A stretch of DNA of 64,000 nt from Escherichia coli (GTDB taxonomy: Bacteria > Pseudomonadota > Gammaproteobacteria > Enterobacterales > Enterobacteriaceae), in assembly GCF_011045215.1 (NCBI RefSeq), contig NZ_CP049201.1; one strand, 5' to 3'. The notes beneath the pieces were generated by a model. It did no database searches. It saw only the letters and a list, made by a program, of their open reading frames with translations, and was not told the DNA's origin. Shown piece after piece: positions 6,218 to 62,320 of this stretch. The position numbers and the translations under genes were made by a program. The stretch's first letter is position 1, and every line of letters begins with the position of its first letter.

Positions 6218-7273
6218 TTAAAACTGATAGGTCATGCCAACCGCGACAATATCATCATTATTAATATTCAATTTGTTATCGCTATCCAGTTGGTTGATTT
6301 TATAATCAACAAACGCTGACATATTTTTGTTGAAATAATACGTAGCACCGACGTCGATATAATTGACCAGATCTTCATCACCGATACCTTCAATATCTTT
6401 CCCTTTCGATAAGACATAACCCAGCGATGGACGCAGACCAAAGTCAAACTGGTATTGAGCGACCGCTTCAAAGTTCTGTGTCTTATTGGCAAAGCCGCCA
6501 GTTATTGGCGTCATTTTGCGAGTTTCAGAATAGAAAGTTGCCAGATAAATATTATTGGCATCGTATTTCAGACCTGTTGCCCATGCTTCTGCTCGCTTGC
6601 CTGTGCCACGGCTTTGCAGGTTCTGCTCGTTGGTGCGATCTGAGTTGGTATAGGCCCCACTAATGGCGAAATCGCTGCCGCCAAAGTCATATGTCAATGA
6701 CGTGCCGAAGCCATCGCCGTTTTGCTTTTTAACGTCGCGGTTTTCGTTTTTCCCTTGATATTGCAGGGTTAAGTTCAGACCATCGATAACGCCGAAGAAG
6801 TCGGTGTTCCTATACGTCGCCAGACCGCTGGCGCGTTTGGTCATAAAGTTGTCGGTCTGCGCCGAGGAGTCGCCACCAAATTCCGGGAACATATCGGTCC
6901 AGGCTTCCACGTCATACAACGCGCCCAGGTTACGGCCATAGTCGAAAGAACCCAAATCTTTATACTTCAATCCGGCAAAAGCGAGACGCGTTTTTTGCTG
7001 TGCAGTATCACTCTCCGCTTTATTTCCGGCAAACTCCGCTTCCCAACGACCATAACCAGTCAGTTGATCGTTAATTTGTGTTTCGCCTTTAAAACCAAAA
7101 CGGATATAACTCTGGTCGCCATCTTTACTGTCGTTATCACTCATATAATGCATGGCTTTAACTTTGCCATAGACATCCAGTTTATTACCGTCTTTGTTAT
7201 ATATTTCTGCGGCCTGTACGGATGCAGATGCCACAATGCCCATCACCACTAATGCCAGAGTGCTCTTTTTCAT
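6218..7273 (-). CDS. phoE: Outer membrane phosphoporin PhoE
   Basis: Signal peptide [21 protein letters not shown], porin C-terminal F; start placed at MKK rather than ORF-track MKM. Confidence 0.9.
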
Positions 7274-8675: not shown

Positions 8676-9929
8676 ATGCTGGAACAAATGGGCATTGCCG
8701 CGAAGCAAGCCTCGTATAAATTAGCGCAACTCTCCAGCCGCGAAAAAAATCGCGTGCTGGAAAAAATCGCCGATGAACTGGAAGCACAAAGCGAAATCAT
8801 CCTCAACGCTAACGCCCAGGATGTTGCTGACGCGCGAGCCAATGGCCTTAGCGAAGCGATGCTTGACCGTCTGGCACTGACGCCCGCACGGCTGAAAGGC
8901 ATTGCCGACGATGTACGTCAGGTGTGCAACCTCGCCGATCCGGTGGGGCAGGTAATCGATGGCGGCGTACTGGACAGCGGCCTGCGTCTTGAGCGTCGTC
9001 GCGTACCGCTGGGGGTTATTGGCGTGATTTATGAAGCGCGCCCGAACGTGACGGTTGATGTCGCTTCGCTGTGCCTGAAAACCGGTAATGCGGTGATCCT
9101 GCGTGGTGGCAAAGAAACCTGTCGCACTAACGCGGCAACGGTAGCGGTGATTCAGGACGCCCTGAAATCCTGTGGCTTACCGGCGGGTGCCGTGCAGGCG
9201 ATTGATAATCCTGACCGTGCGCTGGTCAGTGAAATGCTGCGTATGGATAAATACATCGACATGCTGATCCCGCGCGGCGGGGCTGGTTTGCATAAACTGT
9301 GCCGCGAACAGTCGACGATCCCGGTGATCACAGGTGGTATAGGCGTATGCCATATTTACGTTGATGAAAGTGCAGAGATCGCTGAAGCCCTGAAAGTAAT
9401 CGTCAATGCGAAAACTCAGCGTCCGAGCACATGTAATACGGTAGAAACGTTGCTGGTGAATAAAAACATCGCCGATAGCTTCCTGCCCGTATTAAGCAAA
9501 CAAATGGCGGAAAGCGGCGTGACATTACACGCAGATGCAGCTGCGCTGACACAGTTGCAGGCAGGCCCCGCGAAGGTGGTGGCGGTTAAAGCCGAAGAGT
9601 ATGACGATGAGTTTCTGTCATTAGATTTGAACGTCAAAATCGTCAGCGATCTTGACGATGCCATCGCCCATATTCGTGAACACGGCACGCAACACTCCGA
9701 TGCGATCCTGACCCGCGATATGCGCAACGCCCAGCGTTTTGTTAACGAAGTGGATTCGTCCGCTGTTTACGTTAACGCCTCTACGCGTTTTACCGACGGC
9801 GGCCAGTTTGGACTGGGTGCGGAAGTGGCGGTAAGCACACAAAAACTCCACGCGCGTGGCCCAATGGGGCTGGAAGCACTGACCACTTACAAGTGGATCG
9901 GCATTGGTGATTACACCATTCGTGCGTAA
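8676..9929 (+). CDS. proA: Gamma-glutamyl phosphate reductase
   Basis: 417 aa ORF immediately after proB, aldehyde dehydrogenase-like. Confidence 0.9.
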
Positions 9930-10043: not shown

Positions 10044-10119
10044 GCCGATATAGCTCAGTTGGTAGAGCAGCGCATTCGTAATGCGAAGGTCGTAGGTTCG
10101 ACTCCTATTATCGGCACCA
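10044..10119 (+). tRNA. thrW: tRNA-Thr (anticodon CGT)
   Basis: 76 nt GCCGATATAGCTCAGTTGGTAGAGCAGCGCATTCGTAATGCG...TCGGCACCA with anticodon loop tCGTa. Confidence 0.9.
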
Positions 10120-10122
10120 TTT
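10074..10122. repeat. attL: 49-bp tRNA 3-prime segment, directly repeated at 50070-50118
   Basis: Exact 49-bp match ATTCGTAATGCGAAGGTCGTAGGTTCGACTCCTATTATCGGCACCATTT at both positions. Confidence 0.75.
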
Positions 10123-10133
10123 AAATCAATAAG

Positions 10134-11297
10134 TTACACATCATTAGTACCTTCCTTATTTTTTGACTGGGACAAATTTGGGACCGATGGGTTCAGGATC
10201 GAGTCTATTTGCCGTGCGTGTTCGGTAAGGTGATTAGGTGCAAGGTGAGCATATCGACGAACCATTTCGATAGACTCCCAGCCTCCCATTTCCTGTAACA
10301 CTGACAACGGGACTCCGGCTTGAACCAGCCAACTTGCCCAGGTGTGTCTCAAGTCGTGAAATCTGAAATCATCAATACCAGCCCGTCTCAGCGCCGCTTT
10401 CCAGGCTGTGTTTGCGTCATACCGCATCTTCCTTACTGTTGGCGCTTTCGTTCCGTCTGGTTTGGTACAGCTTTCCTTGTACACAAATACCCAACGGTGA
10501 TGATTCCCGATTTGTTTTTTCAAAACGCGACATGCAGTATCATTCAGCGCAACGCCAATTGCGCGGTTTGATTTACTCTCTTCCGGGTTTATCCATGCCA
10601 CCCGGCGCTGCATGTCTATTTGTTGCCATTCAAGGTTGATGATGTTCGAGCGTCTTAAGCCTGTTGCCAGTGCAAATTCAACAACAGACTTTAATGGCTC
10701 CGGACATTCATCAATCAGCCTTTGTGCTTCATGGGGCTCCAGCCAGCGGATCCGTTTATTCTTTGGTTGAGGCACTTTAATAATTGGTGCCTTATCCAGC
10801 ATTTTCCATTCACGCTCTGCGGCTCTTAGTAGGGCCTTTATAAATGAAAGATGCGTAGCCTTCGTTGCAACGGACGCTGGTTTTGGCGTGTATTCTGGAA
10901 CAGGTTTCCCTTTTTTTCTGCATGCTTCTGCCCTGAGTCTCCAGTTTTCCTCATGACGCCGGTTCGTCATTTTCTGCATTGCTGAATAAATTTTTGATTC
11001 AGTAATGTCTCTTAGTTGCATTCCTGCGAAATGTTGAAGCCAGAATCCGATCCGGCTTTTGTCATCGTCCAGTGATTTTTTATGTGCTTTCTCTTCAAGC
11101 CACCTGACACACGCTTCCTCGAACGTTATATCAGGTATTTCACCAAGTTTGCTGACCCGCCATGCTTCAGCCTTTAGCTTGTCATGGAGTTCTGTCGCCT
11201 GCCTTTTGTCCTTTGTTCCAAGAGACTGTTTAAATCTTTTACCGTTCGGCAATGTGAAACTGGCGTACCATATTTCACCTCTGCGGAAGAGTGACAT
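10134..11297 (-). CDS. Phage integrase (tyrosine recombinase)
   Basis: C-terminal catalytic motif [10 protein letters not shown]...RRYAHL; adjacent to tRNA. Confidence 0.85.
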
Positions 11298-50069: not shown

Positions 50070-50118
50070 ATTCGTAATGCGAAGGTCGTAGGTTCGACTC
50101 CTATTATCGGCACCATTT
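50070..50118. repeat. attR of prophage / attL of downstream element: second copy of 49-bp tRNA-Thr 3-prime segment
   Basis: Exact repeat of 10074-10122. Confidence 0.75.
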
Positions 50119-50280
50119 CAACGTCTTTTCCCGTCTATTAAAATCCAAAAAACCCGCATATACTCTAGCTTTGAGCGCCCCCGATAGTGTTTTAACGTCT
50201 ATCAATATCTCCTAAAATCCACGTCTTTTGGGGGTATATTCGGGGGTATATGCTGTGTGGGCTACTGGAGATACCCCCAA

Positions 50281-51471
50281 ATGAAACTAAATGCCCGTCA
50301 GGTCGATACGGCCAAACCGAAAGAAAAACCCTATAAACTGGCCGATGGTGGTGGGCTTTATCTGCTTGTTAATCCCAATGGTTCCCGGTACTGGCGTTTA
50401 AAGTACCGGGTAGCCGGAAAAGAAAAGCTGTTGGCGCTGGGGGTATATCCCGATGTAACCCTGGCTGATGCCAGGGCGAAACGAGATGAGGCCAAAAGGG
50501 GTATGGCTGGGGGGATCGACCCGAACGAAGCGAAGCGGGAAGAAAAATTGAACCGCGAAGCGCAAATCAAAAACACCTTCGAAGAAATCGCCAGAGAGTG
50601 GCATACAGAACGGCAGAAGAAATGGTCTGAGGGGTACGCCTCGGACATTCTGGAAGCATTCAGTAAAGACATATTCCCTTGGATTGGAAAACGCCCCATC
50701 ACGGAAATAAAGCCCCTTGATTTGCTGAATACGCTTAAACGCATCGAGAATAGGGGAGCGACTGAAAAGGCCCGTAAGGTTCGCCAGTGGTGCGGGGAGG
50801 TCTGGAAGTATGCGATCGTTACCGCCCGCGCAGAATATAACCCCGCCCCTGATCTATCTGTGGCTATGGAAGGACACGAAGGGGAGCACTTCCCCCATCT
50901 GGAAGCCGAAGAGTTACCCGAATTTTTCCAGACGCTGGCGACGGCAAAAAGTAACGTTCAGGTTATTTTGGGGCTGCGTCTGCTTATTCTTGTGGGGTTA
51001 CGTCCGGTTGAATTACGCGCGGCCCCGTGGTCAGAGATTGATTTTGATAATGCCTTGTGGGAGATCCCCAAAGAGCGAATGAAGAAAAGACGTCCGCACG
51101 TTGTCCCGCTTTCTCGCCAGGCTATGGTTATTCTCGGGCAATTAAAAGAGTTGTCGGGCCGCAATCCTTTCATTTTTCCGGGCCGGAACGACCCGCGAAA
51201 GCCAATGAGTGAAGGAGCAATTAATCAGCTAATAAAGCGACTCGGGTATAAGGGCAAAGCTTGCGGGCATGGTTTCCGACATACCATGAGCACAATTTTG
51301 TATGAGAAAGGGTATAACACCGAATGGATCGAAACCCAGCTTGCACATGTTGATAAAAATACCATCCGTGGCACATATAATCATGCCCGCTATCTGGATG
51401 GACGCCGGGAAATGCTTCAATGGTATGCCGACTATATGGAATCGCTGGCGAGTGGCAGGGTAAAAGATTAG
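50281..51471 (+). CDS. P4-type integrase (tyrosine recombinase)
   Basis: N-terminal MKLNARQVDTAKPKEKPYKLADGGGLYL typical of P4-family integrases; catalytic HGFRHT... Confidence 0.85.
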   Translation: MKLNARQVDTAKPKEKPYKLADGGGLYLLVNPNGSRYWRLKYRVAGKEKLLALGVYPDVTLADARAKRDEAKRGMAGGIDPNEAKREEKLNREAQIKNTFEEIAREWHTERQKKWSEGYASDILEAFSKDIFPWIGKRPITEIKPLDLLNTLKRIENRGATEKARKVRQWCGEVWKYAIVTARAEYNPAPDLSVAMEGHEGEHFPHLEAEELPEFFQTLATAKSNVQVILGLRLLILVGLRPVELRAAPWSEIDFDNALWEIPKERMKKRRPHVVPLSRQAMVILGQLKELSGRNPFIFPGRNDPRKPMSEGAINQLIKRLGYKGKACGHGFRHTMSTILYEKGYNTEWIETQLAHVDKNTIRGTYNHARYLDGRREMLQWYADYMESLASGRVKD

Positions 51472-52020: not shown

Positions 52021-52260
52021 ATGTTAATAGCGGGTGTGAATATGAGAAATGATGCAATGCAGCTTTTAAACCAGGGAAAAAGATTGATCCGCCTGCCTGA
52101 AGTTATGATGCTTACGGGGCGGTGTCGCGCCAGTATTTATAAAGATATCAATGCAAATGTCTTTCCAAAGCCGATTAAAACCGGCCCGCGTTCTGTCGCA
52201 TGGGTTGAGGGTGAGATCAGCGACTGGATCGACAACAAAATCAAAGAGCGCAAAGTGTAA
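52021..52260 (+). CDS. AlpA-family transcriptional regulator
   Basis: RLIRLPEVMMLTGRCRASIYKDI...FPKPIK.GPRSVAWVEGEISDWI; start may be 52057. Confidence 0.7.
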   Translation: MLIAGVNMRNDAMQLLNQGKRLIRLPEVMMLTGRCRASIYKDINANVFPKPIKTGPRSVAWVEGEISDWIDNKIKERKV

Positions 52261-52459: not shown

Positions 52460-53332
52460 ATGAACATTACTGATATTATCAGCCATCGCGTATATCGTGA
52501 TGCGGATCTTGCTGTCATTAATAACACGGCATTTATTCAGCCTTATGACGGTTGTCACCGTGGGTTGTATGAAATGCGCGTTATTGAACTTTATCGCCTG
52601 AATAAAATGATGCACCTTACCCACGAATATAAATCTATTTCCGGGGAAAGCGTAGGCATTCCGGCGACTAAAGAGGAACTGTTTACACTGGTTAATAAAG
52701 GGCATGAACTTTGCCAGTCTGAACGGGAAAAGCTGGCGGCACTTGAAGCAGAATTGCAGCGTCTGCCAAGCCCGGCTGTAATTCCTGCGCCGCAGACGAT
52801 TAAAGAAGCACAGCAGGCCCGTAAATCACTAGAAGATGAAAGATACAGACTGCATCACGCAGCAATTAAAAATCAAGTCAAAGCACAGCAGGAAGAGTTA
52901 TCCATCAGACAAAACATTCTGGAATTGCTCGCGCCGGTTATTGATGTGTTGTTGGCCGTGGAAGATGTGGAACTGCTCGATCTGCGCCGTTCCCTGCCTA
53001 AGTCATCCCTCGATGCTAAGGCATTCAAAAAGGCGATTTCTGAAATTGAGTGTGCTGACCTTGCCTGGCAGAAAATGGATAAACTGGAGATTGCCCTTAA
53101 CAAGGTGGTGAACAACTGCACATATCGCCCGGAAGGAAGCATTAATCCCCGTTTTGTTAACCCTCTTAATGAAGATAAGCGGGAACGCGCCGAAATATCA
53201 CGCGATTATTACAGCTCTGAAATGGCCTTTATTCATACGGTGATGAGTGCAGATGAATATTTAAATTATATGTTGCCGATCCGTCACCAGCAGCGCGCGC
53301 AACGACTCACATTAGAAAGAAATATCAACTAA
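52460..53332 (+). CDS. Coiled-coil protein (possible scaffold or capsid-size factor)
   Basis: 290 aa with long predicted helical/coiled-coil central region; immediately upstream of capsid-like gene. Confidence 0.4.
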   Translation: MNITDIISHRVYRDADLAVINNTAFIQPYDGCHRGLYEMRVIELYRLNKMMHLTHEYKSISGESVGIPATKEELFTLVNKGHELCQSEREKLAALEAELQRLPSPAVIPAPQTIKEAQQARKSLEDERYRLHHAAIKNQVKAQQEELSIRQNILELLAPVIDVLLAVEDVELLDLRRSLPKSSLDAKAFKKAISEIECADLAWQKMDKLEIALNKVVNNCTYRPEGSINPRFVNPLNEDKRERAEISRDYYSSEMAFIHTVMSADEYLNYMLPIRHQQRAQRLTLERNIN

Positions 53333-53341
53333 GGAAGAATT

Positions 53342-54349
53342 ATGTCTTATGTAACACCAGATTATTTAACGCAGTATCACGAAAACCTGATTAAGTCTTT
53401 TAATATTAAATATAAAAACGAAGATACGGGGTATTTCACCATATCACAGCCGGAAAAAGCATCTCCGGATGCATGGGGATGTTCCACGCTTGATGTTAAA
53501 GGCTCGTCCTGGCTGATTGATAATATTTCATTACTGGACATTATCGGTGCGGATGGCACGACGATCACCATCGGTGATGGTTCCCTTTATACAGGCCGTG
53601 CAAAGGAAGGTCGCTTTCATAAGAAACTAAAAACCAACGGAACACCTTTTTTATTATCAGAAACGGATTCCTGCGCCTCATTGACTTATGAAGAAATGGC
53701 GGTAATGGCAAACGCGAAAAATTTCAGTAATGAAATGATCATTTTTTTCAAGAAGGCCGTGGTGCGGGATATGCTCCGTATTGGATTTAACGGCAAGATG
53801 ATTGCCGAAAATACCAACCCGGAACAATATAAAAACGGCGAAGATATCAATATTGGCTGGCACTCGCTGGCAAAAACATTCAATAACGGTTCACAAATTA
53901 TTTCTGATGCTTTCGCACTGGGGAAAGGCGGTGATTTTGCCGATGTTCACGATCTGGCTGATTGCCTCATCACGTCAAAAATCCCCGAAGGTCAGCGCGA
54001 AGATCCGGGCCTTGTGGTGATGGTTGGCGCGCAACTTGCCGCCCGCGAACGACTGAAACTGTTCAACATGGCCGATCAACCACTGACGCTGACGGCGGGG
54101 GATATGCTGACAAGCAGTGTCGCCGGTCGCTTTGCTTTTATCCCGCCGTTTATGCCGGGTAAGCGCCTGGCTGTTACGACGCTGAAAAATTTGCAGATCC
54201 TGACGCTGAAACACAGCCAACGCTACCGCGCGGAGGATATCCCGCAACGAGGTGTTTATGAGCATGGCTATTTACGTGAGGAAGGTTACGCGCTGGGGGA
54301 TGGCTATCTTTACGCGGCCAGCGATGAGAACGCCGTAACGCTGGTTTAA
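53342..54349 (+). CDS. P2 gpN-family major capsid-like protein
   Basis: Motifs GFNG, GKGGDFA and EDPGLVVMVGAQLAA resemble recalled P2 gpN; needs search confirmation. Confidence 0.5.
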   Translation: MSYVTPDYLTQYHENLIKSFNIKYKNEDTGYFTISQPEKASPDAWGCSTLDVKGSSWLIDNISLLDIIGADGTTITIGDGSLYTGRAKEGRFHKKLKTNGTPFLLSETDSCASLTYEEMAVMANAKNFSNEMIIFFKKAVVRDMLRIGFNGKMIAENTNPEQYKNGEDINIGWHSLAKTFNNGSQIISDAFALGKGGDFADVHDLADCLITSKIPEGQREDPGLVVMVGAQLAARERLKLFNMADQPLTLTAGDMLTSSVAGRFAFIPPFMPGKRLAVTTLKNLQILTLKHSQRYRAEDIPQRGVYEHGYLREEGYALGDGYLYAASDENAVTLV

Positions 54350-54870: not shown

Positions 54871-54960
54871 GTTTGCTACGTTGCAAACTGAAAAAACGAA
54901 GCCCGGCAGTGTTGACGCACTAACCGGGCCTCTGACCAACACGTTATTAGGAGTAACGCT

Positions 54961-56613: not shown

Positions 56614-59376
56614 TTGTCTTACCCATTAATAAAGGTCATACCGATGCAAGGTAAAAAAGTTTCACAGACAGCAGGACGCGCGGCGGGCCAGTGGGAAAAT
56701 ATTCTTGAACACCTGGGGATTACTGTTCCTGCGGGTGGTCTTCATGGCCCCTGCCCGATCTGCGGCGGTAAAGATCGTTTTCGCTTTGATAATAAAAAAG
56801 GGCGTGGAACCTGGTTCTGCAACCAGTGCGGCCACGGTGACGGGCTGGATCTGGTCAAACTGGCGCTTTCGCTGGACACCGGGCCAGCCGCTGATCGAGT
56901 TGCTGAATTACTTCCGGCCCTTCCTCCGCCTGCGGTCATGCAGCCTGCCAGAAAAGAAGCCAGTGACGAAGGTCGCCCACATGACTACTGGCAACGCCTC
57001 TTTGCCCGTACTCAGCCGGGGGAAAGCCCTTACCTTACGGCGCGGGGGCTGACAGGTTTTGAACTGCCGCTGACCGTTCAGGAGATGAAAACCGCTGGCG
57101 GTGTTTTTCCGGCTGGTTCGCTTTTATTACCGATCACGGACACCGAAGGACGGATGACCGGTGCACAGCTTATCGGCCCGGACAAGGTAAAAGGCTTATG
57201 TGCTGGCACCAGGAAAAAAGGGCGTTTTATCTCTGTCGGGCCGTTCCCGGAGAAAATGCCCGCGCGGATCATTATCTCGGAAGGCTTTGCCACTGCGTTA
57301 AGCGCATCCCTGCTTTCAGAGGGCTGGAGTATTGCGGCGCTGGATAAAGGCAACCTGAAAGACGTTGCGGAGCAAATCCGCCAGAAATGGCCGGACGTGC
57401 AGATCGTTATTGCCGGTGATAATGACTTTTCTGACGGTAAACCCAATCAGGGGAAAGAGTCTGCGATCAAAGCTGCACTGGCCGTTAAGGGATGGATGAC
57501 CATTCCTCCCGGACGGATCAAAGTTGACTGGGATGATTACCGCCGTGAATTTGGCCTCCAGCGCGCCCGTGACGCATTCGCGGAAGAACTGCTTAACCCG
57601 GCAGACACCGAAACGCGTTTACCGCATGGTTTCCGCCTGACGAAGGATTATCTTTGGTTTGATCGCCCGCTCAGTGACGGTAGCGAAAGCGGCCAGACTC
57701 GCCAGGTGAAGATATGTAGCCCGCTCAAAGTGACGGCCATCACCAGCGACGGCGAAGGCGGTAAATTCGGGCGTCTGCTTGAGTGGGAAGACTCCAGCGG
57801 ATTACGGCATGAATGGGCGATGCCAATGACAGTGCTTGCCGGAAGCGGTCAGGAGCTGCGGGAGGTTCTGCTTGATAACGGAATGCACTTTATCAGCGTG
57901 AACGGCGCGGCGCGTAGCTATCTGATGGAATACATTTCTAACTGTCGCCCGGTTCGCCGCGTCACCTGCGTTGAAAAAACAGGCTGGTTTAGCGGTGCGT
58001 ATGTTCTCCAGGATGAGGTGATCGGCAGCGATGCCGGATCGGTCATCCTCCAGTCTGCTATGTCGTCTAAAAATGACTTCCGGGTGAGCGGAACGGTGGC
58101 GGAATGGGCGCAACACGTCGGGCGCTATTGTGCCGGAAATTCCCGCCTGGTGTTCTGCGTCAGTCTGGCGCTGGCCGCGCCGTTACTGAATATTATTGGT
58201 GTTGGCGGCGGCGGTTATCACCTTAAGGGCGAATCCACGGACGGCAAGACAACCACAATGAAGGTAGCGGCGTCTGTCTGCGGCGGGCCTGATTTCTGGA
58301 AAACGTGGCGGGCAACCGGAAACGCGCTGGAAGGTATTGCGCTACGCCGTAATGATGCCGCCCTGATGCTGGATGAAATCAGCGAAGTTGACGGCAGAGA
58401 GGCTAGCCGGATCGCCTATATGCTGGGGAACGGGCAGGGCAAAGCAAGGGGGCGCGTTGATGGCAGCGTCCGCGATCCGGTGACCTGGACATTGCTTTAC
58501 CTGTCCACCGGGGAAATCTCTATTGCGGAACATGCCGCCGAAGCCGGAGAAAAGCGAACCGGCGCGGGTGTCGGTGTGCGTATGGTGCAAATCCCCAGCG
58601 ATACCGGAAAACATGGCGCTTTCGAAAATCTCCACGGCATGGAAGGCGGTAAAGCGTTTGCGGAATACCTTGAACAGACCTGTAAACAATATTACGGCGC
58701 GCCGTTCCGCGAATGGTTGCGCTGGCTGGCGGCAAATCTGACGGAAACCGCGAACCGGGCGCGGGCAATGAAAAAAGAGTATGAACGGACATTATTACCC
58801 GAAGATTCCGGCAAGCAGGTTGGGCGCATTGTGGATCGCTTTGCACTGTTGGCCGTTGCGGGGGAACTGGCGAGTGAAGCGGGGATCACAGGCTGGCAAC
58901 CAGGAGAAGCGTATAACGCTGCAAGAAGCTGTCTGGCGGCATGGCTTAACGATCGTGGACATGCGGCCAACCAGGAAGAAGCCGACGCGCTGGAGAAGGT
59001 GCGGCGCTTTATTACGGCCAATCAGTACACACGCTTTGCTGACTGGTATGACGAGAAAAACCGCCCGTCAAATATGGTTGGCTTTCGCCGGGTGGAGAAA
59101 GGCGGGAACGGTATTGGCATGAGCAAAAAGGAGAACAGCGGCGATACTGTTAAAGACGGGGACGCCACTAAAGAGCCGGAAACCACATTTTATATCCTGC
59201 CCAGCGGATGGAAGGAAATTTGCGGGACGTCGGACAGCGTTAAAACGGCGAGACTATGCGACGAGGCTGGATGGCTTGTAAAGGATGAAGATCGCCAGCG
59301 CCTACAACGTACAGTAAGACTACCGGAAATTGGCTTAAAGAAAGTGTATGTGTTCAGCGGCGAAGTGATCGGATAA
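56614..59376 (+). CDS. P4 alpha-like primase-helicase
   Basis: Zinc-binding CPICGG...CNQCGHGDG, TOPRIM-like IISEGFATA...AGDND, P-loop GESTDGKTT. Confidence 0.8.
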   Translation: MSYPLIKVIPMQGKKVSQTAGRAAGQWENILEHLGITVPAGGLHGPCPICGGKDRFRFDNKKGRGTWFCNQCGHGDGLDLVKLALSLDTGPAADRVAELLPALPPPAVMQPARKEASDEGRPHDYWQRLFARTQPGESPYLTARGLTGFELPLTVQEMKTAGGVFPAGSLLLPITDTEGRMTGAQLIGPDKVKGLCAGTRKKGRFISVGPFPEKMPARIIISEGFATALSASLLSEGWSIAALDKGNLKDVAEQIRQKWPDVQIVIAGDNDFSDGKPNQGKESAIKAALAVKGWMTIPPGRIKVDWDDYRREFGLQRARDAFAEELLNPADTETRLPHGFRLTKDYLWFDRPLSDGSESGQTRQVKICSPLKVTAITSDGEGGKFGRLLEWEDSSGLRHEWAMPMTVLAGSGQELREVLLDNGMHFISVNGAARSYLMEYISNCRPVRRVTCVEKTGWFSGAYVLQDEVIGSDAGSVILQSAMSSKNDFRVSGTVAEWAQHVGRYCAGNSRLVFCVSLALAAPLLNIIGVGGGGYHLKGESTDGKTTTMKVAASVCGGPDFWKTWRATGNALEGIALRRNDAALMLDEISEVDGREASRIAYMLGNGQGKARGRVDGSVRDPVTWTLLYLSTGEISIAEHAAEAGEKRTGAGVGVRMVQIPSDTGKHGAFENLHGMEGGKAFAEYLEQTCKQYYGAPFREWLRWLAANLTETANRARAMKKEYERTLLPEDSGKQVGRIVDRFALLAVAGELASEAGITGWQPGEAYNAARSCLAAWLNDRGHAANQEEADALEKVRRFITANQYTRFADWYDEKNRPSNMVGFRRVEKGGNGIGMSKKENSGDTVKDGDATKEPETTFYILPSGWKEICGTSDSVKTARLCDEAGWLVKDEDRQRLQRTVRLPEIGLKKVYVFSGEVIG

Positions 59377-59469
59377 GACCTGCTGACACCGCTATAACTA
59401 ACGGTGTTGGCCAGCTTCCGGCCCTGGAAACATAGCCAGCCAGGAAGAAGTGATCGCACGTATCATATT

Positions 59470-59690
59470 TTTTAGTGGAAACAGTGGGAACATAGGGAAC
59501 AGACTTGATTTATAAAGGTTTTATTTGTTCCCAATTACTGTTCCCATATGGTAACAGGTGGTAATGTATTTTAAATCATATGGTTATGTTGATATGCAAA
59601 GCGTTGTTCCCAGTTGTAAAAGAGAGATGGGAACAGGAAAAAGGTATAAATATCAACACTGTTACCATTGTTCCCACTGTTTCCACCATT
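59470..59690. repeat. Iteron cluster (TGTTCCCA / TGGGAACA), crr/ori-like
   Basis: At least 9 copies in both orientations directly downstream of primase. Confidence 0.6.
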
Positions 59691-59724
59691 TTTGACAATA
59701 ACAATATTTAATTTCGGGGAAAAT

Positions 59725-59741
59725 GCTTTTCCCTGGCTGGC
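59725..59741. repeat. 17-bp direct repeat GCTTTTCCCTGGCTGGC (copy 1)
   Basis: Perfect match to 62005-62021. Confidence 0.6.
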
Positions 59742-59760
59742 TAACATCAAAGGTAAAGAA

Positions 59761-60726
59761 ATGAGCATTAAGAAACGTCCTGATGGAAAATGGCTGGTAG
59801 ATATGCGGCCCGCAGGTCGTAAAGGAAAACGTATTCGCAGGGTTTTTAACAGGAAATCGGAGGCCCTGGCATTTGAGATGTATTACCTGGTCCGTTCTCA
59901 ATCGCCGGAATGGGCAACGAACTTCACAGACCGCAGATTATTAAGCGATTTGCGTAAAACATGGTGGGACCTGTTTGGACACGCCAGAAATAACGCAGAA
60001 ACTGAAAAGCGCCAGCTTGATAAAACCATCCGGCAGATGGGAGATCCACCAGTTAACCGGCTTACAATCCGCTTCATTCTGGAATTCAGAGCAGGCCGTG
60101 TTTCAGGGAAATTAAAGGCATCCACGATAAATCGCGATATGTACCGGTTATCAGGCATGTTTACCGAATTAATTAAAGCAGGTGAGTGTAAAAATAATCC
60201 GTTCCGTAGTCTTGAACCGTTAAAGGAAGAACCTTCCGCAGTAACGTTTCTGACCCACGAAGAAATTAGCATGTTACTGGAAAAACTGGAGGGAGATTCG
60301 CGTAAGCTGGCGTTACTGTGTCTTAATACTGGGGCGCGTTTCAGTGAAGCCGCGAATCTAACGGCTGAAATGGTTAACAACCGTCGTGTAACGTTTATTA
60401 AGACAAAGAACGGGAAGCAGCGGACAATACCCATTTCATCTGAACTCGAAAAGGAAATAAAAACAAAAAATTCAGGTCAACTTTTCACGGTGGATTATAA
60501 ATGGTTTTCCCGCAGGTTGAAGGCAATCAAACCGGATTTACCGGATGGACAGGCAACGCATGTATTACGACATACTTTCGCCAGTCATTTCATTATGAAT
60601 GGGGGAAATATTGTTGTATTAAAAGAGATTCTTGGACATGCCAATATTCAGCAAACTATGATTTATGCACACTTTGCGCCTGAATTTCTGGCGCAGGCTG
60701 TAACATTGAATCCATTTAGTAAGTAA
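59761..60726 (+). CDS. Tyrosine integrase (second integrase of the region)
   Basis: N-terminal MSIKKRPDGKWLVD arm-binding-like region; C-terminal HVLRHTFASH... Confidence 0.8.
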   Translation: MSIKKRPDGKWLVDMRPAGRKGKRIRRVFNRKSEALAFEMYYLVRSQSPEWATNFTDRRLLSDLRKTWWDLFGHARNNAETEKRQLDKTIRQMGDPPVNRLTIRFILEFRAGRVSGKLKASTINRDMYRLSGMFTELIKAGECKNNPFRSLEPLKEEPSAVTFLTHEEISMLLEKLEGDSRKLALLCLNTGARFSEAANLTAEMVNNRRVTFIKTKNGKQRTIPISSELEKEIKTKNSGQLFTVDYKWFSRRLKAIKPDLPDGQATHVLRHTFASHFIMNGGNIVVLKEILGHANIQQTMIYAHFAPEFLAQAVTLNPFSK

Positions 60727-60754
60727 CTGCGGATTTTCTTTTGAATGTACAAAA

Positions 60755-61012
60755 CTAACGTTGAAGTAATTCTTTCATGACCGTTTTTTGTTCCGGCGTC
60801 ATCATGTCAATCATTGTTTTTACTGCTTTATCCCCAGTCAGAGCGCTGGGGCTTAGCGTATGGGAGAACGTCATATTCATAACGAAGGTATGCCCACATT
60901 CAACATTATTACAGGCACAATACATATCAGACAGGTGGGGATGCTTGCGCACTGTCTTTTTTGTTGTTGAATTACTTCCACACTCAGGACAAACAATTTT
61001 ATGGCTGCGCAT
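60755..61012 (-). CDS. Ogr/Delta-family zinc-finger late-gene activator-like protein
   Basis: CPEC...CACNNVEC zinc-finger spacing resembling P2 Ogr; start uncertain. Confidence 0.5.
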   Translation of the reverse strand: MRSHKIVCPECGSNSTTKKTVRKHPHLSDMYCACNNVECGHTFVMNMTFSHTLSPSALTGDKAVKTMIDMMTPEQKTVMKELLQR

Positions 61013-61432
61013 AATAATCACCACTCGTAAAAGGCGCATTATTATACCACTATTTGCATTAAACAAAAAAAAGAAATTGATATAAATTATCAATAATATC
61101 ATCGTGTTATGTCATTCCATTCTTTCTTTGCTTTTAACTTAGTGTCACGCAATTTGATTTTTTTTGTTTTAATTTTCATATGGTTACGTTATTTTGATTA
61201 AAGATTGAATTTTACGATGACTGTAATTATTGAAATCCTTTTCAACTGATTGCATTTTTTTCAGTCTCAAATTTCATGTAAAACCCCGTTTAACGCCTGT
61301 TCTGGCGCTTCTTTCCTGCAATTTTCCAAACTGAAAAAATTCTCACTACGTAAACACCGTGGGCGTGCGGGTGAGCGCGGTTTTGGTCCCGCTGGCGTTT
61401 GCGTCGTAACAAGTCAGAAACATACAACCACA

Positions 61433-61450
61433 TGTACAACTAGCTGTACA
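61433..61450. promoter_or_regulatory. Putative TA operator: two TGTACA palindromes
   Basis: TGTACAactagcTGTACA upstream of yefM-like start. Confidence 0.5.
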
Positions 61451-61495
61451 TATGCAATACTTACGACGTAATAACTTGGCGGACGGAAAAACACT

Positions 61496-61741
61496 ATGCA
61501 ACACGTAAACTATACCGATGCTCGACAGCATTTAGCTGACCTGATGCAGCAGGCTAATGATGATCGTGCGCCAATCCTGGTTACGCGTAAGGGTGCTAAA
61601 AGCGTAGTAATGATCGATGCGGAAGAGTTCGCATCGATTCAGGAAACGTTACACCTGTTCAGTAACCCGGCGAACGCCGCACACATTGAAGCCAGCCTTG
61701 CATCGCTCGAACGCGGCGATTATGAGGAACTGGACATTTAA
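61496..61741 (+). CDS. YefM/Phd-family antitoxin
   Basis: 81 aa; ATGA overlap with toxin gene. Confidence 0.7.
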   Translation: MQHVNYTDARQHLADLMQQANDDRAPILVTRKGAKSVVMIDAEEFASIQETLHLFSNPANAAHIEASLASLERGDYEELDI

Positions 61742-62001
61742 TGAAAGTCAGGATATCCCCGCAGGCAAAAGGCGATCTTCAGTACTGGGCTGAGAATGAC
61801 CCAAAGACGTATAACAAGGTAATGGAGCTAATCAAATCGGCTAAGGAAAGCCCCTTCAAGGGGATAGGGAAGCCGGAGGCGCTAAAGCATCGTAAGCCGC
61901 TTTGGTCACGTCGAATCACGAAAGAACATCGCCTGGTGTATTACGTTGAGCAAGGCGATCTGTACATTGTTGCGTGTCGCTATCACTACACCACGATTTA
62001 A
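61741..62001 (+). CDS. YoeB/Txe-family toxin (mRNA interferase)
   Basis: KGKPE.LKH...WSRRIT.EHRLVY...ACRYHY motif. Confidence 0.75.
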   Translation: MKVRISPQAKGDLQYWAENDPKTYNKVMELIKSAKESPFKGIGKPEALKHRKPLWSRRITKEHRLVYYVEQGDLYIVACRYHYTTI

Positions 62002-62004
62002 ACA

Positions 62005-62021
62005 GCTTTTCCCTGGCTGGC
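62005..62021. repeat. 17-bp direct repeat GCTTTTCCCTGGCTGGC (copy 2)
   Basis: Perfect match to 59725-59741. Confidence 0.6.
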
Positions 62022-62320
62022 GGGTTTACCTTAACTTTGCCAGCACTGTTTAAACGCCCGCCGCTCTCTCCCAAATACAGTATAAAAAGCAATCAATTAT
62101 TGTGGACGTAAAAGCGCATGGGGGTACAATTGGGGGTACGTTGGTTATCCATTATGTAATAAATTCATAATAAACATGGTGTTATATTGCATGTTTAACT
62201 CTTATTATCTACCCCATATTCAAATACACCACGTTTCCTCCTGTGCCGTATTTATGCCATTGTAACCCTGGCAATTAATCAAAATACTGTTCTGACATCA
62301 GGCAATGCAGGTGCAGACAT

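Follow-up and report, generated by a model that had tools for sequence, protein, structure and literature searches.

In a 64,000-nucleotide stretch of Escherichia coli DNA (contig NZ_CP049201.1 of RefSeq assembly GCF_011045215.1, referred to at its full length as the window) the 17-nucleotide sequence GCTTTTCCCTGGCTGGC occurs exactly twice, at 59725-59741 (copy 1) and 62005-62021 (copy 2), on the + strand in both cases, bracketing an integrase gene (int2), an Ogr/Delta-like activator gene and a yefM-yoeB toxin-antitoxin pair inside a P4-like satellite (50.07 to ~62.21 kb) that is integrated at the tRNA gene thrW. The reading that we favor, with moderate confidence, is that the two 17-mers are copies of a cis motif, TTTTYCCTGGCTGGC, which belongs to the standard architecture of P4-like satellites and brackets the block of genes next to the replication origin. 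The motif recurs in related satellites at two defined positions and in one orientation, and there is no sign that the pair acts as attachment (att) sites. An initial reading of the window, made from the sequence alone, had proposed either a nested mini integrative element with an addiction module or paired regulatory sites; a nested mobile element is not supported by the data presented below, and paired cis sites are compatible with them, an idea that can be generalized to the P4-like family as a whole.

Both perfect 17-bp direct repeats described in the sequence-only reading are confirmed, exact at both positions, and the likeness between them reaches 20 of 22 bases when flanking nucleotides are included (59720-59741 against 62000-62021). 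Copy 1 ends 19 bases before the ATG of int2 and, at the other end of the block, the yoeB stop codon is followed after 3 bases by copy 2; a further, inverted copy with 3 mismatches is located at 59435-59451 on the - strand, and the only other exact repeat of at least 17 bases within the window is the att repeat of thrW. The initial claim that such a pair is very unlikely to arise by chance holds for closely spaced copies, with two or more matches to GCTTTTCCCTGGCTGGC in 0 of 100 shuffles and an exact 17-mer direct pair no more than 3 kb apart in 0 of 300 simulations, but not for the window as a whole, as an exact 17-mer direct pair is found somewhere in 64 kb in 12% of first-order Markov simulations. 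The pair is unlikely to be a product of chance, though not astronomically so, and it is because of its recurrence in related satellites that we accept the repeat as real. With both copies located at module junctions, conserved across ~30 loci, and with the motif recurring at syntenic sites in distant satellites, we assign next to no probability to coincidence, the 12% figure notwithstanding.

A search of 100,044 species genomes with the exact 17-mer returned at least 120 single matches in unrelated taxa, approximately the level expected by chance, and no empty sites among the matches listed; the 17-mer is not a dispersed repeat, and the concern that it might be a common element at many unrelated loci is not borne out. 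Scanning IMG/VR produced one more copy of the same satellite, the remaining matches being unrelated. When 64 other satellites were examined generically for long exact repeats shared by the origin and the DNA that follows it, none exceeded control levels except for one 16-mer in L235, so that the exact duplication is particular to the family of the window satellite and recurrence becomes visible only in the motif-level test described below.

Copy 1 lies at the edge of the replication origin downstream of the alpha primase-helicase gene, which we refer to as position (a) and define as lying 100-450 bp past alpha on its strand, and contains TTTTYCCTGGCTGGC at 59727-59741 with 0 mismatches. The iteron-bearing origin (59452-59724), situated where crr is found in P4, contains seven GGGAACA/TGTTCCC plus GGTAACA/GGAAACA variants, with the GGGAACA iterons spanning 59477-59690 and no other iteron cluster in the satellite. 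It is laid out as 82-nt inverted arms around an AT-rich center (z = -6.0 for the fold of the single-stranded DNA), and the outermost pairing of this quasi-palindrome is that of 59433-59450 with 59726-59743, an 18-nt inverted repeat, complementary at 16 of 18 positions, that copy 1 and the inverted copy form around a 275-bp iteron region. Copy 1 is in this manner the outermost right arm of the origin and the inverted copy at 59435-59451 its partner, the outer left arm.

The same arrangement is seen in satellites with a different gene content. In L149, a canonical P4-like satellite with an alpha protein that is 74% identical to that of the window and with GGTAACA iterons, GCCCGCCAGGAAAGAAGT is located to the left of the iterons and GCTTCTTTCCTGGCTGGC to the right, an inverted pair at 6467 (-) and 6756 (+) that is equivalent to the outer arms in the window. 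Homology to the window ends right after the motif, to be followed in L149 by sid/psu/delta-like genes and a P2-type cos, with no int2. The L151 group (alpha 59% identical) carries CCCTTTTTCTGGCGGGC at the same place, again with an inverted partner, and motif-matching arms are present at the same post-alpha position in L197/198, L229, L243 and others. The arms in L149 and the L151 group establish that copy 1 is a part of origin architecture that is independent of int2. The motif is not an alpha iteron, and a reading of copy 2 as such an iteron or as an equivalent of crr was considered and rejected, because the motif stays constant across the iteron types GGGAACA, GGTAACA, GGTTACA and GAACCAAC and across alpha types. 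Within the family of the window satellite the alpha/origin module is swapped as a unit (window 56614-59743 compared with L003 753-3990) between a DUF927-type alpha with GGGAACA iterons and a Toprim_2-type alpha with GGTTACA iterons and an inverted repeat of its own.

The distribution of the motif was quantified using 80 alpha-bearing loci sampled from IMG/VR, 64 of which were scanned along with the window satellite (65 loci in total). Matches on the + strand, that of alpha, cluster 136-354 bp and ~1.5-2.6 kb after the alpha stop codon; other bins are near zero and the minus strand has few matches in these two bins. When up to 3 mismatches to the consensus TTTTYCCTGGCTGGC are tolerated, for which the background is 0.10 matches per kb per strand, position (a) is occupied in ~37 of the 65 loci, over alpha identity classes from 99% down to 32% and in at least 12 alpha lineages, numbers that must be read bearing in mind that the consensus was refined after the data had been seen and that many of the sampled loci are close relatives, so that independent lineages are fewer than loci.

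The second cluster corresponds to what we call position (b). In canonical satellites with the order alpha-ori-sid-(psu)-delta a same-strand motif is found at the right edge of the origin (TTTTATCTGGCTGGC or TTTTTTCTGGCTGGC), as in the window, and again after the delta terminator (TTTTCCCTGGCTGGC, identical to the window 17-mer at 16 of 17 bases), bracketing the origin-adjacent block in both cases. Examples, in which the order continues with cos, a hotspot and int, are the EDL933 island (312-319 kb of NZ_CP008957.1), L204, L198, L257 and L258. Position (b), 0-200 bp after the delta/ogr stop codon, is occupied in 12 of the 12 canonical IMG/VR satellites with enough flanking sequence, mostly with zero mismatches, and in three separately fetched E. 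coli P4-like islands it is located just after the delta terminator. One of these, EDL933, has CTTTTCCCTGGCTGGC directly following the terminator, a match to the window 17-mer at 16 of 17 bases that L204 reproduces; in the other two, (a) and (b) each deviate from the motif by 2 mismatches. In L149 a third copy, GCTTTTTCCTGACAGGC, is found on the same strand 2.17 kb beyond the origin arm, directly after the terminator of the delta-like gene. Of 5426 complete E. coli genomes, 633 contain the region comprising the terminator and (b).

Copy 2 occurs in every locus of the window family that reaches this point, including seven that have no copy 1, and it lies 2.28 kb downstream of copy 1 as a perfect copy. 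It differs from its canonical counterparts, however, in following yoeB rather than a delta terminator, in having flanks that are unrelated to canonical (b) flanks, and in being identical to (a), whereas canonical (a) and (b) differ by 1-2 bases. The canonical block is the sid-(psu)-delta late operon, in contrast to the int2, inverted ogr-like and yefM-yoeB genes of the window, and beyond canonical (b) come a conserved, GCATG-rich sequence close to cos and a defense hotspot, whereas in the window copy 2 is followed by the att arm, with no P2-type cos found. Three junctions in the window fall exactly at motif edges, (a)/int2, yoeB/(b) and (b)/arm, with surrounding sequence unrelated to the canonical flanks. 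P4 itself (NC_001609) is a partial parallel. As in the window there is an iteron cluster immediately after alpha, in the crr position, and CTTTTCCTGGCTTGC is found at 9458, flanked on one side by the final type-1 iteron of ori and on the other by the TGT-N12-ACA site that precedes sid. Unlike the window satellite, with its single cluster, P4 has two (ori and crr) and divergent alpha and sid genes; its alpha is only 26% identical, and it has no homologous second copy of the motif after psu. The sequence TTTTCCTGCC after psu had been taken for copy (b) but was withdrawn, since alignment places it elsewhere.

We propose that copy 2 would be the counterpart of the motif copy found directly after the late-operon terminator in canonical satellites, and that the bracketed block, a delta-controlled late operon in those elements, would have been replaced in the lineage of the window by a P2-type integrase (intact here and mostly truncated in relatives), an inverted Ogr/Delta-like activator and yefM-yoeB. 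The motif would be a putative DNA site for a host factor or for a factor common to the satellites, whose role at copy 1 may lie in the architecture of the origin and at copy 2 in delimiting or insulating the neighboring block; given the rearrangement breakpoints at its edges, the motif may in addition be a junction for module exchange. A more specific version, that TTTTYCCTGGCTGGC is an unannotated cis-acting site bound by a host or conserved satellite protein at both edges of the origin and again at the distal end of the block, is one that we advance only tentatively. The earlier suggestion of paired regulatory sites fits the occurrence of the motif at two syntenic positions. Binding of the repeat by the Ogr-like protein is without sequence support, since the Ogr/Delta site pattern TGT-N12-ACA is absent from the repeat and from the vicinity of either copy, and the GCCAGCC / GGCTGGC found in some activator sites of sid promoters amounts to a resemblance only. 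Searches of the accessible literature for the motif sequence and for work on sid promoters gave nothing relevant, weak evidence of novelty. In P2 (NC_001895, 8412-8426, minus strand) TTTTACCTGGCTGGC, one mismatch away from the motif, overlaps the annotated putative attenuator of the O operon, beside a GCTGGCAC/GTGCCAGC hairpin; this may be coincidence.

A number of observations weigh against this interpretation. The whole stretch from the terminator through (b) to the GCATG-rich sequence is well conserved in canonical satellites, so that the motif is not distinguishably more constrained than its surroundings. The closest relatives by gene content, the L151 group, which have a capsid gene of their own and an Ogr-like protein of the same subfamily, possess (a) but not (b), and copy 2 in the window may on this account be a secondary acquisition or a duplicate of copy 1. 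The post-psu TTTTCCTGCC of P4 fails to align with (b), an unbiased 17-mer scan of L149 gives only p ~0.03-0.05, and the apparent significance of the survey is inflated by the post hoc refinement of the consensus and drawn from loci many of which are closely related. Finally, the function ascribed to the motif is one suggested by its position and recurrence.

An alternative is that copy 2 is an evolutionary scar, a non-functional duplicate of copy 1 that was left by insertion of the block or by short-homology recombination between two satellites beside the origin and that is now an inert junction. This is a possibility that we consider doubtful. The perfect identity over 17 bases (20 of 22 with flanks), when canonical (a) and (b) differ by one or two, is what a duplicate would display, as is the lack of (b) in the L151 group. 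Moreover, the family is visibly mosaic, with alpha/origin modules and int2 alleles occurring in all four combinations, and crr abuts the att arm in P4, making an ancestral adjacency of origin and arm plausible. However, a scar does not readily account for the same motif at the distal end of the block in canonical satellites where block content is unrelated, nor for the fact that copy 2 is unchanged both in satellites that have lost copy 1 and in arms whose remaining sequence diverges by as much as 9%, and the three junctions located exactly at motif edges are easier to understand if the motif is selected or is itself the point of recombination.

The proposal of a nested element can be examined using ~40 loci of the satellite family, all at thrW, taken from complete E. 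coli genomes, draft assemblies, IMG/VR and one metagenome. In such an element int2 would recombine the 17-mers as attL and attR, the 2.28-kb block would excise as a circle and re-insert, and the toxin-antitoxin pair would stabilize it. In its favor are a full-length int2 with catalytic residues that adjoins one of the repeats, and direct repeats of 17-22 bp, in the size range of P2-family att cores. Both repeats are present in all 25 loci that have the alpha/origin type of the window and reach both ends, yet in 17 of these int2 is a divergent, truncated open reading frame (ORF) that retains Int_N only, with no catalytic domain, and the spacing of the repeats is nevertheless constant. Conversely, all seven loci with a Toprim_2-type alpha and its origin (GGTTACA iterons) have int2-ogr-yefM-yoeB contiguous with the satellite and followed by copy 2, but no copy 1, with a degenerate TATTTTTTCTG--TTAAC at the upstream position; in five of the seven int2 is full length, so that an intact integrase and a whole block occur here with no upstream repeat. 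The presence of copy 1 tracks origin type, whatever the state of int2, and arms like copy 1 are found in relatives that have no int2, such as L149. The sequence-only reading had itself named, as grounds for refutation, related genomes in which these genes are contiguous with the satellite but lack the flanking repeats; by that standard a nested mini integrative element is largely refuted, and we regard it as improbable.

Further evidence points in the same direction. Excision by int2 implies a circle junction, TTTAAACAGCTTTTCCCTGGCTGGCTAACATC (TTTAAACA-GCTTTTCCCTGGCTGGC-TAACATC), and an empty site or deletion junction, GGGGAAAATGCTTTTCCCTGGCTGGCGGGTTTACC (GGGGAAAAT-GCTTTTCCCTGGCTGGC-GGGTTTACC). 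No deletion product, in which the origin is joined through one 17-mer to the arm, was seen in 24 contigs read for one alpha allele and chosen regardless of the block, 6 of which were fetched as loci and contain both repeats in each case, nor in the 25 loci with the origin type of the window, 3 complete E. coli genomes or one metagenome match. Empty sites, excised forms and other contexts were likewise not found in assembled sequences (5426 E. coli genomes, phage and plasmid collections, contigs retrieved via int2, yoeB, ogr and alpha, and a metagenome scan), and the block has never been encountered outside the satellite family; the metagenome scan for the arm beside copy 2 returned one locus, where yoeB again comes before it. 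P2-family att sites have tgTGGaCa or tgccGCCActt arm repeats, at least two of them direct on each side of the core, and cores of 21-27 nt (PMC3448106). SEN5 and phiT5282H, the nearest relatives among phages, have TGTCTACA doublets beside int and P2 has annotated P and P' arms, but the whole satellite studied here contains a single TGTGGAC, at 62101, and inspection by eye of the repeat and its flanks for 186-type arms (tgccGCCActt) revealed none. In addition, int2 faces away from copy 1, the 28 bp that separate int2 from the ogr-like gene are located where P2 has attP, and among the genes of the block is the satellite's own Ogr/Delta activator, which in related satellites counts as a core gene.

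A further alternative is control at the level of RNA, resembling P4 immunity, in which seqA and seqC are paired by seqB. The inverted copy, as part of a + strand RNA (59435-59451), would pair with the 17-mer in the int2 leader and in read-through from the yoeB 3' end. Counting G-U pairs, 16 of its 17 positions can pair in this way, and two direct copies plus a complementary one do resemble the layout of seqA, seqB and seqC. We find this very improbable nonetheless. No Rfam family, C4/CI-type RNAs included, is detected in the whole satellite at E <= 1, the elements are located downstream of alpha rather than in the leader of the replication operon, and the local RNA folds that are predicted do not stand out (for 61990-62075, z = -2.1 on the + strand and z = -1.0 on the minus strand; for 59700-59765, z = -0.55). 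Origin DNA is a sufficient explanation of the palindrome, and canonical (b) lies past the T-run of a terminator and would be mostly untranscribed.

Returning to the bracketed genes, family matches show that the gene content given in the sequence-only reading (a tyrosine integrase, a minus-strand Ogr/Delta-like zinc finger and a YefM/YoeB pair with TGTACA-N6-TGTACA) was correct. The int2 gene (59761-60726, +) encodes a P2-family tyrosine integrase of 321 aa (PF24624 and PF00589) whose identity to P2 Int is 53% along the full length, and to the integrases of SEN4/SEN5 and phiT5282H 60%; aligned with those of SEN5 and phiT5282H it displays GAR, KTKNGK, HVLRH and IYAH, so that the R, K, HxxR, H/W, Y set is intact. 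The Ogr/Delta-like zinc-finger transcription activator (60755-61012, -; phrog_603, E = 5e-31; PF04606) is 53% identical to the Ogr-like protein encoded directly after the origin in L151-group satellites and 27% identical to P2 Ogr, which identifies it as the satellite's own delta equivalent and not as cargo derived from a phage. A TGTACA-N6-TGTACA palindrome, seen in the sequence at 61433-61450 upstream of yefM, is what we take to be the YefM-YoeB operator on the basis of established knowledge of E. coli yefM-yoeB. The two genes, yefM (61496-61741, +; TIGR01552, 47.9 bits, cutoff 20.8) and yoeB (61741-62001, +; TIGR02116, 94 bits, cutoff 51.8), overlap by one base and have the features of a type II toxin-antitoxin system. 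In passing both family models, in the overlap and in the upstream palindrome the pair resembles E. coli YefM-YoeB and is an ordinary one of its kind that differs in being satellite-borne, with stabilization or defense as putative functions.

Within the family int2 exists as two alleles, the full-length P2-type integrase and the commoner, divergent truncated ORF (~50% amino acid identity) of 182 or 173 aa for which Pfam reports Int_N only (L001 4462-5010; L012 8455-8976). The truncated form keeps the N-terminal arm-binding and core-binding part and is delimited by sharp mosaic breakpoints at window positions 59811/59812 and 60760/60761; it is conceivable that it represents a domesticated N-domain of a helper-type Int, acting as decoy or regulator. 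Both origin types occur with both alleles. The order int2 convergent with an Ogr-family gene is shared with the P2-type module of Peduoviridae (Int, attP with arm repeats, IHF, Cox), but in the window int2 and ogr have no attP between them, tgTGGaCa arm repeats and a cox or C gene are missing, the neighboring Ogr-like gene belongs to a satellite subfamily and not to that of the phage, and most relatives carry a truncated int2. An integrase of the P2 type (48% identical to int2) is also found between an alpha homologue (69%) and a GGGAACA iteron origin in L150 (8682-10080), a 47.5-kb metagenomic viral contig, so that the association of alpha with such an integrase recurs in a different order.

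The satellite as a whole begins at attL (50070-50121, +), a 52-bp repeat of the thrW 3' end (10074-10125 / 50070-50121, 98%). The genes that follow are int1, a P4-type satellite integrase (50257-51471, +; NF007246, E = 3e-91; PF13356/PF22022/PF00589 in relatives), AlpA, a 290-aa ORF, a homologue of the P2-family capsid protein, small ORFs, an epsilon-type derepression protein and the alpha-type primase-helicase (56614-59376, +; Zn-ribbon, Toprim and DUF927; phrog_1139, E = 3.5e-167; PF08273/PF13362/PF06048 on an identical protein). After alpha come the sole iteron cluster, int2, the ogr-like gene, yefM-yoeB and a 190-bp right att arm (62022-62209, +) with GGGGGTA repeats (62119-62138) matching those beside int1 (50229-50248) and a truncated attR core that ends at ~62209; from ~62210 onward the sequence is again that of the E. 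coli core, with a LysR regulator gene. As the satellite extends past both 17-mers the two repeats are internal to it, with copy 2 ~190 bp from its right end. The attR core (62197-62215) has lost ~24 bp (GCACCATTTAAATCAA...) that are kept in L013, L003 and L018, a deletion also seen in L007, and precise excision mediated by int1 may be impaired in this strain. The thrW tRNA-Thr gene (10044-10119) is the site of a tandem array in which a ~40-kb prophage, bounded by the 52-bp thrW repeat, lies directly upstream of the satellite (10044-50121); an integrase-sized ORF on the minus strand (10134-11297) adjoins thrW. The satellite precedes the prophage in L019 and L020, and a further island comes next in L012, L015 and L016.

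Our element functions like a P4-like satellite but is not a canonical member, lacking sid and psu and a recognizable P2-type cos. The P4-like traits present are a P4-type integrase at a tRNA-derived att site, alpha with an adjacent iteron origin, an epsilon-type protein, AlpA and a delta/Ogr-type activator, with PF25738, PF05930, PF04606 and PF06048 matched on identical or near-identical proteins in relatives. Neither PHROGs on 9 satellite ORFs nor a blastp comparison of P4 Sid and Psu with the capsid-like ORF and the 290-aa ORF revealed homologues of sid or psu; their functional slot is occupied by the P2-family major capsid homologue (53342-54349; phrog_70, E = 4e-72; PF05125) and the 290-aa ORF. 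The former is 24% identical to P2 gpN and the latter, upstream of it, has no family match (region 52460-54349; also in L151-L166, L006 and L012-L021), and a satellite with P4-type replication and regulation plus a capsid gene of its own may redirect capsid size in a manner different from P4. A search for the P2-type cos (GGCGAGGCGGGG...), which L149 does carry, gave no match in the satellite with up to 2 mismatches to a 12-mer or up to 5 to the full 19-mer, though a divergent cos could escape. Placement of cos at a GC-rich block (61365-61400) or after copy 2 was dropped with no match to the P2/P4 cos, and an apparent match at 52174 lies inside the alpA coding sequence. The sequence CAAACTGAAAAA occurs twice in the satellite (54884-54895 and 61327-61338), and the GC-rich block that follows the second occurrence is conserved with the L151 group (L151 9383-9535).

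P4-like satellites are known to have variable cargo and defense hotspots, with cargo located after cos (Rousset et al. 2022, PMC9122126; Moura de Sousa and Rocha 2022, PMC8628076). The window satellite resembles these in having accessory genes between the delta side and the att/int side and in the clear modular swapping of its family, but its toxin-antitoxin pair is positioned within the (a)-(b) interval, whereas described cargo is downstream of (b). A large fraction of Enterobacterales genomes harbor satellites of this kind, together with the anti-phage cargo that they carry, and there is only a partial understanding of what delimits their modules and how these are exchanged. One lesson for annotation is that a perfect short direct repeat around an integrase gene in a satellite need not indicate a nested mobile element. 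What may be new here is an apparently unannotated, conserved cis motif within an otherwise ordinary satellite architecture which, if it is a functional boundary or origin site, would provide an easily mutated handle on origin architecture, on the limits of the late or accessory block and on the sites at which cargo is swapped. Were TTTTYCCTGGCTGGC indeed a bound site, it would link replication with late or accessory expression or shield the one from the other, and would mark out a swappable cassette, and the lineage of the window would be a natural experiment in which the late operon has been exchanged for a helper-type integrase, an inverted activator and a toxin-antitoxin pair.

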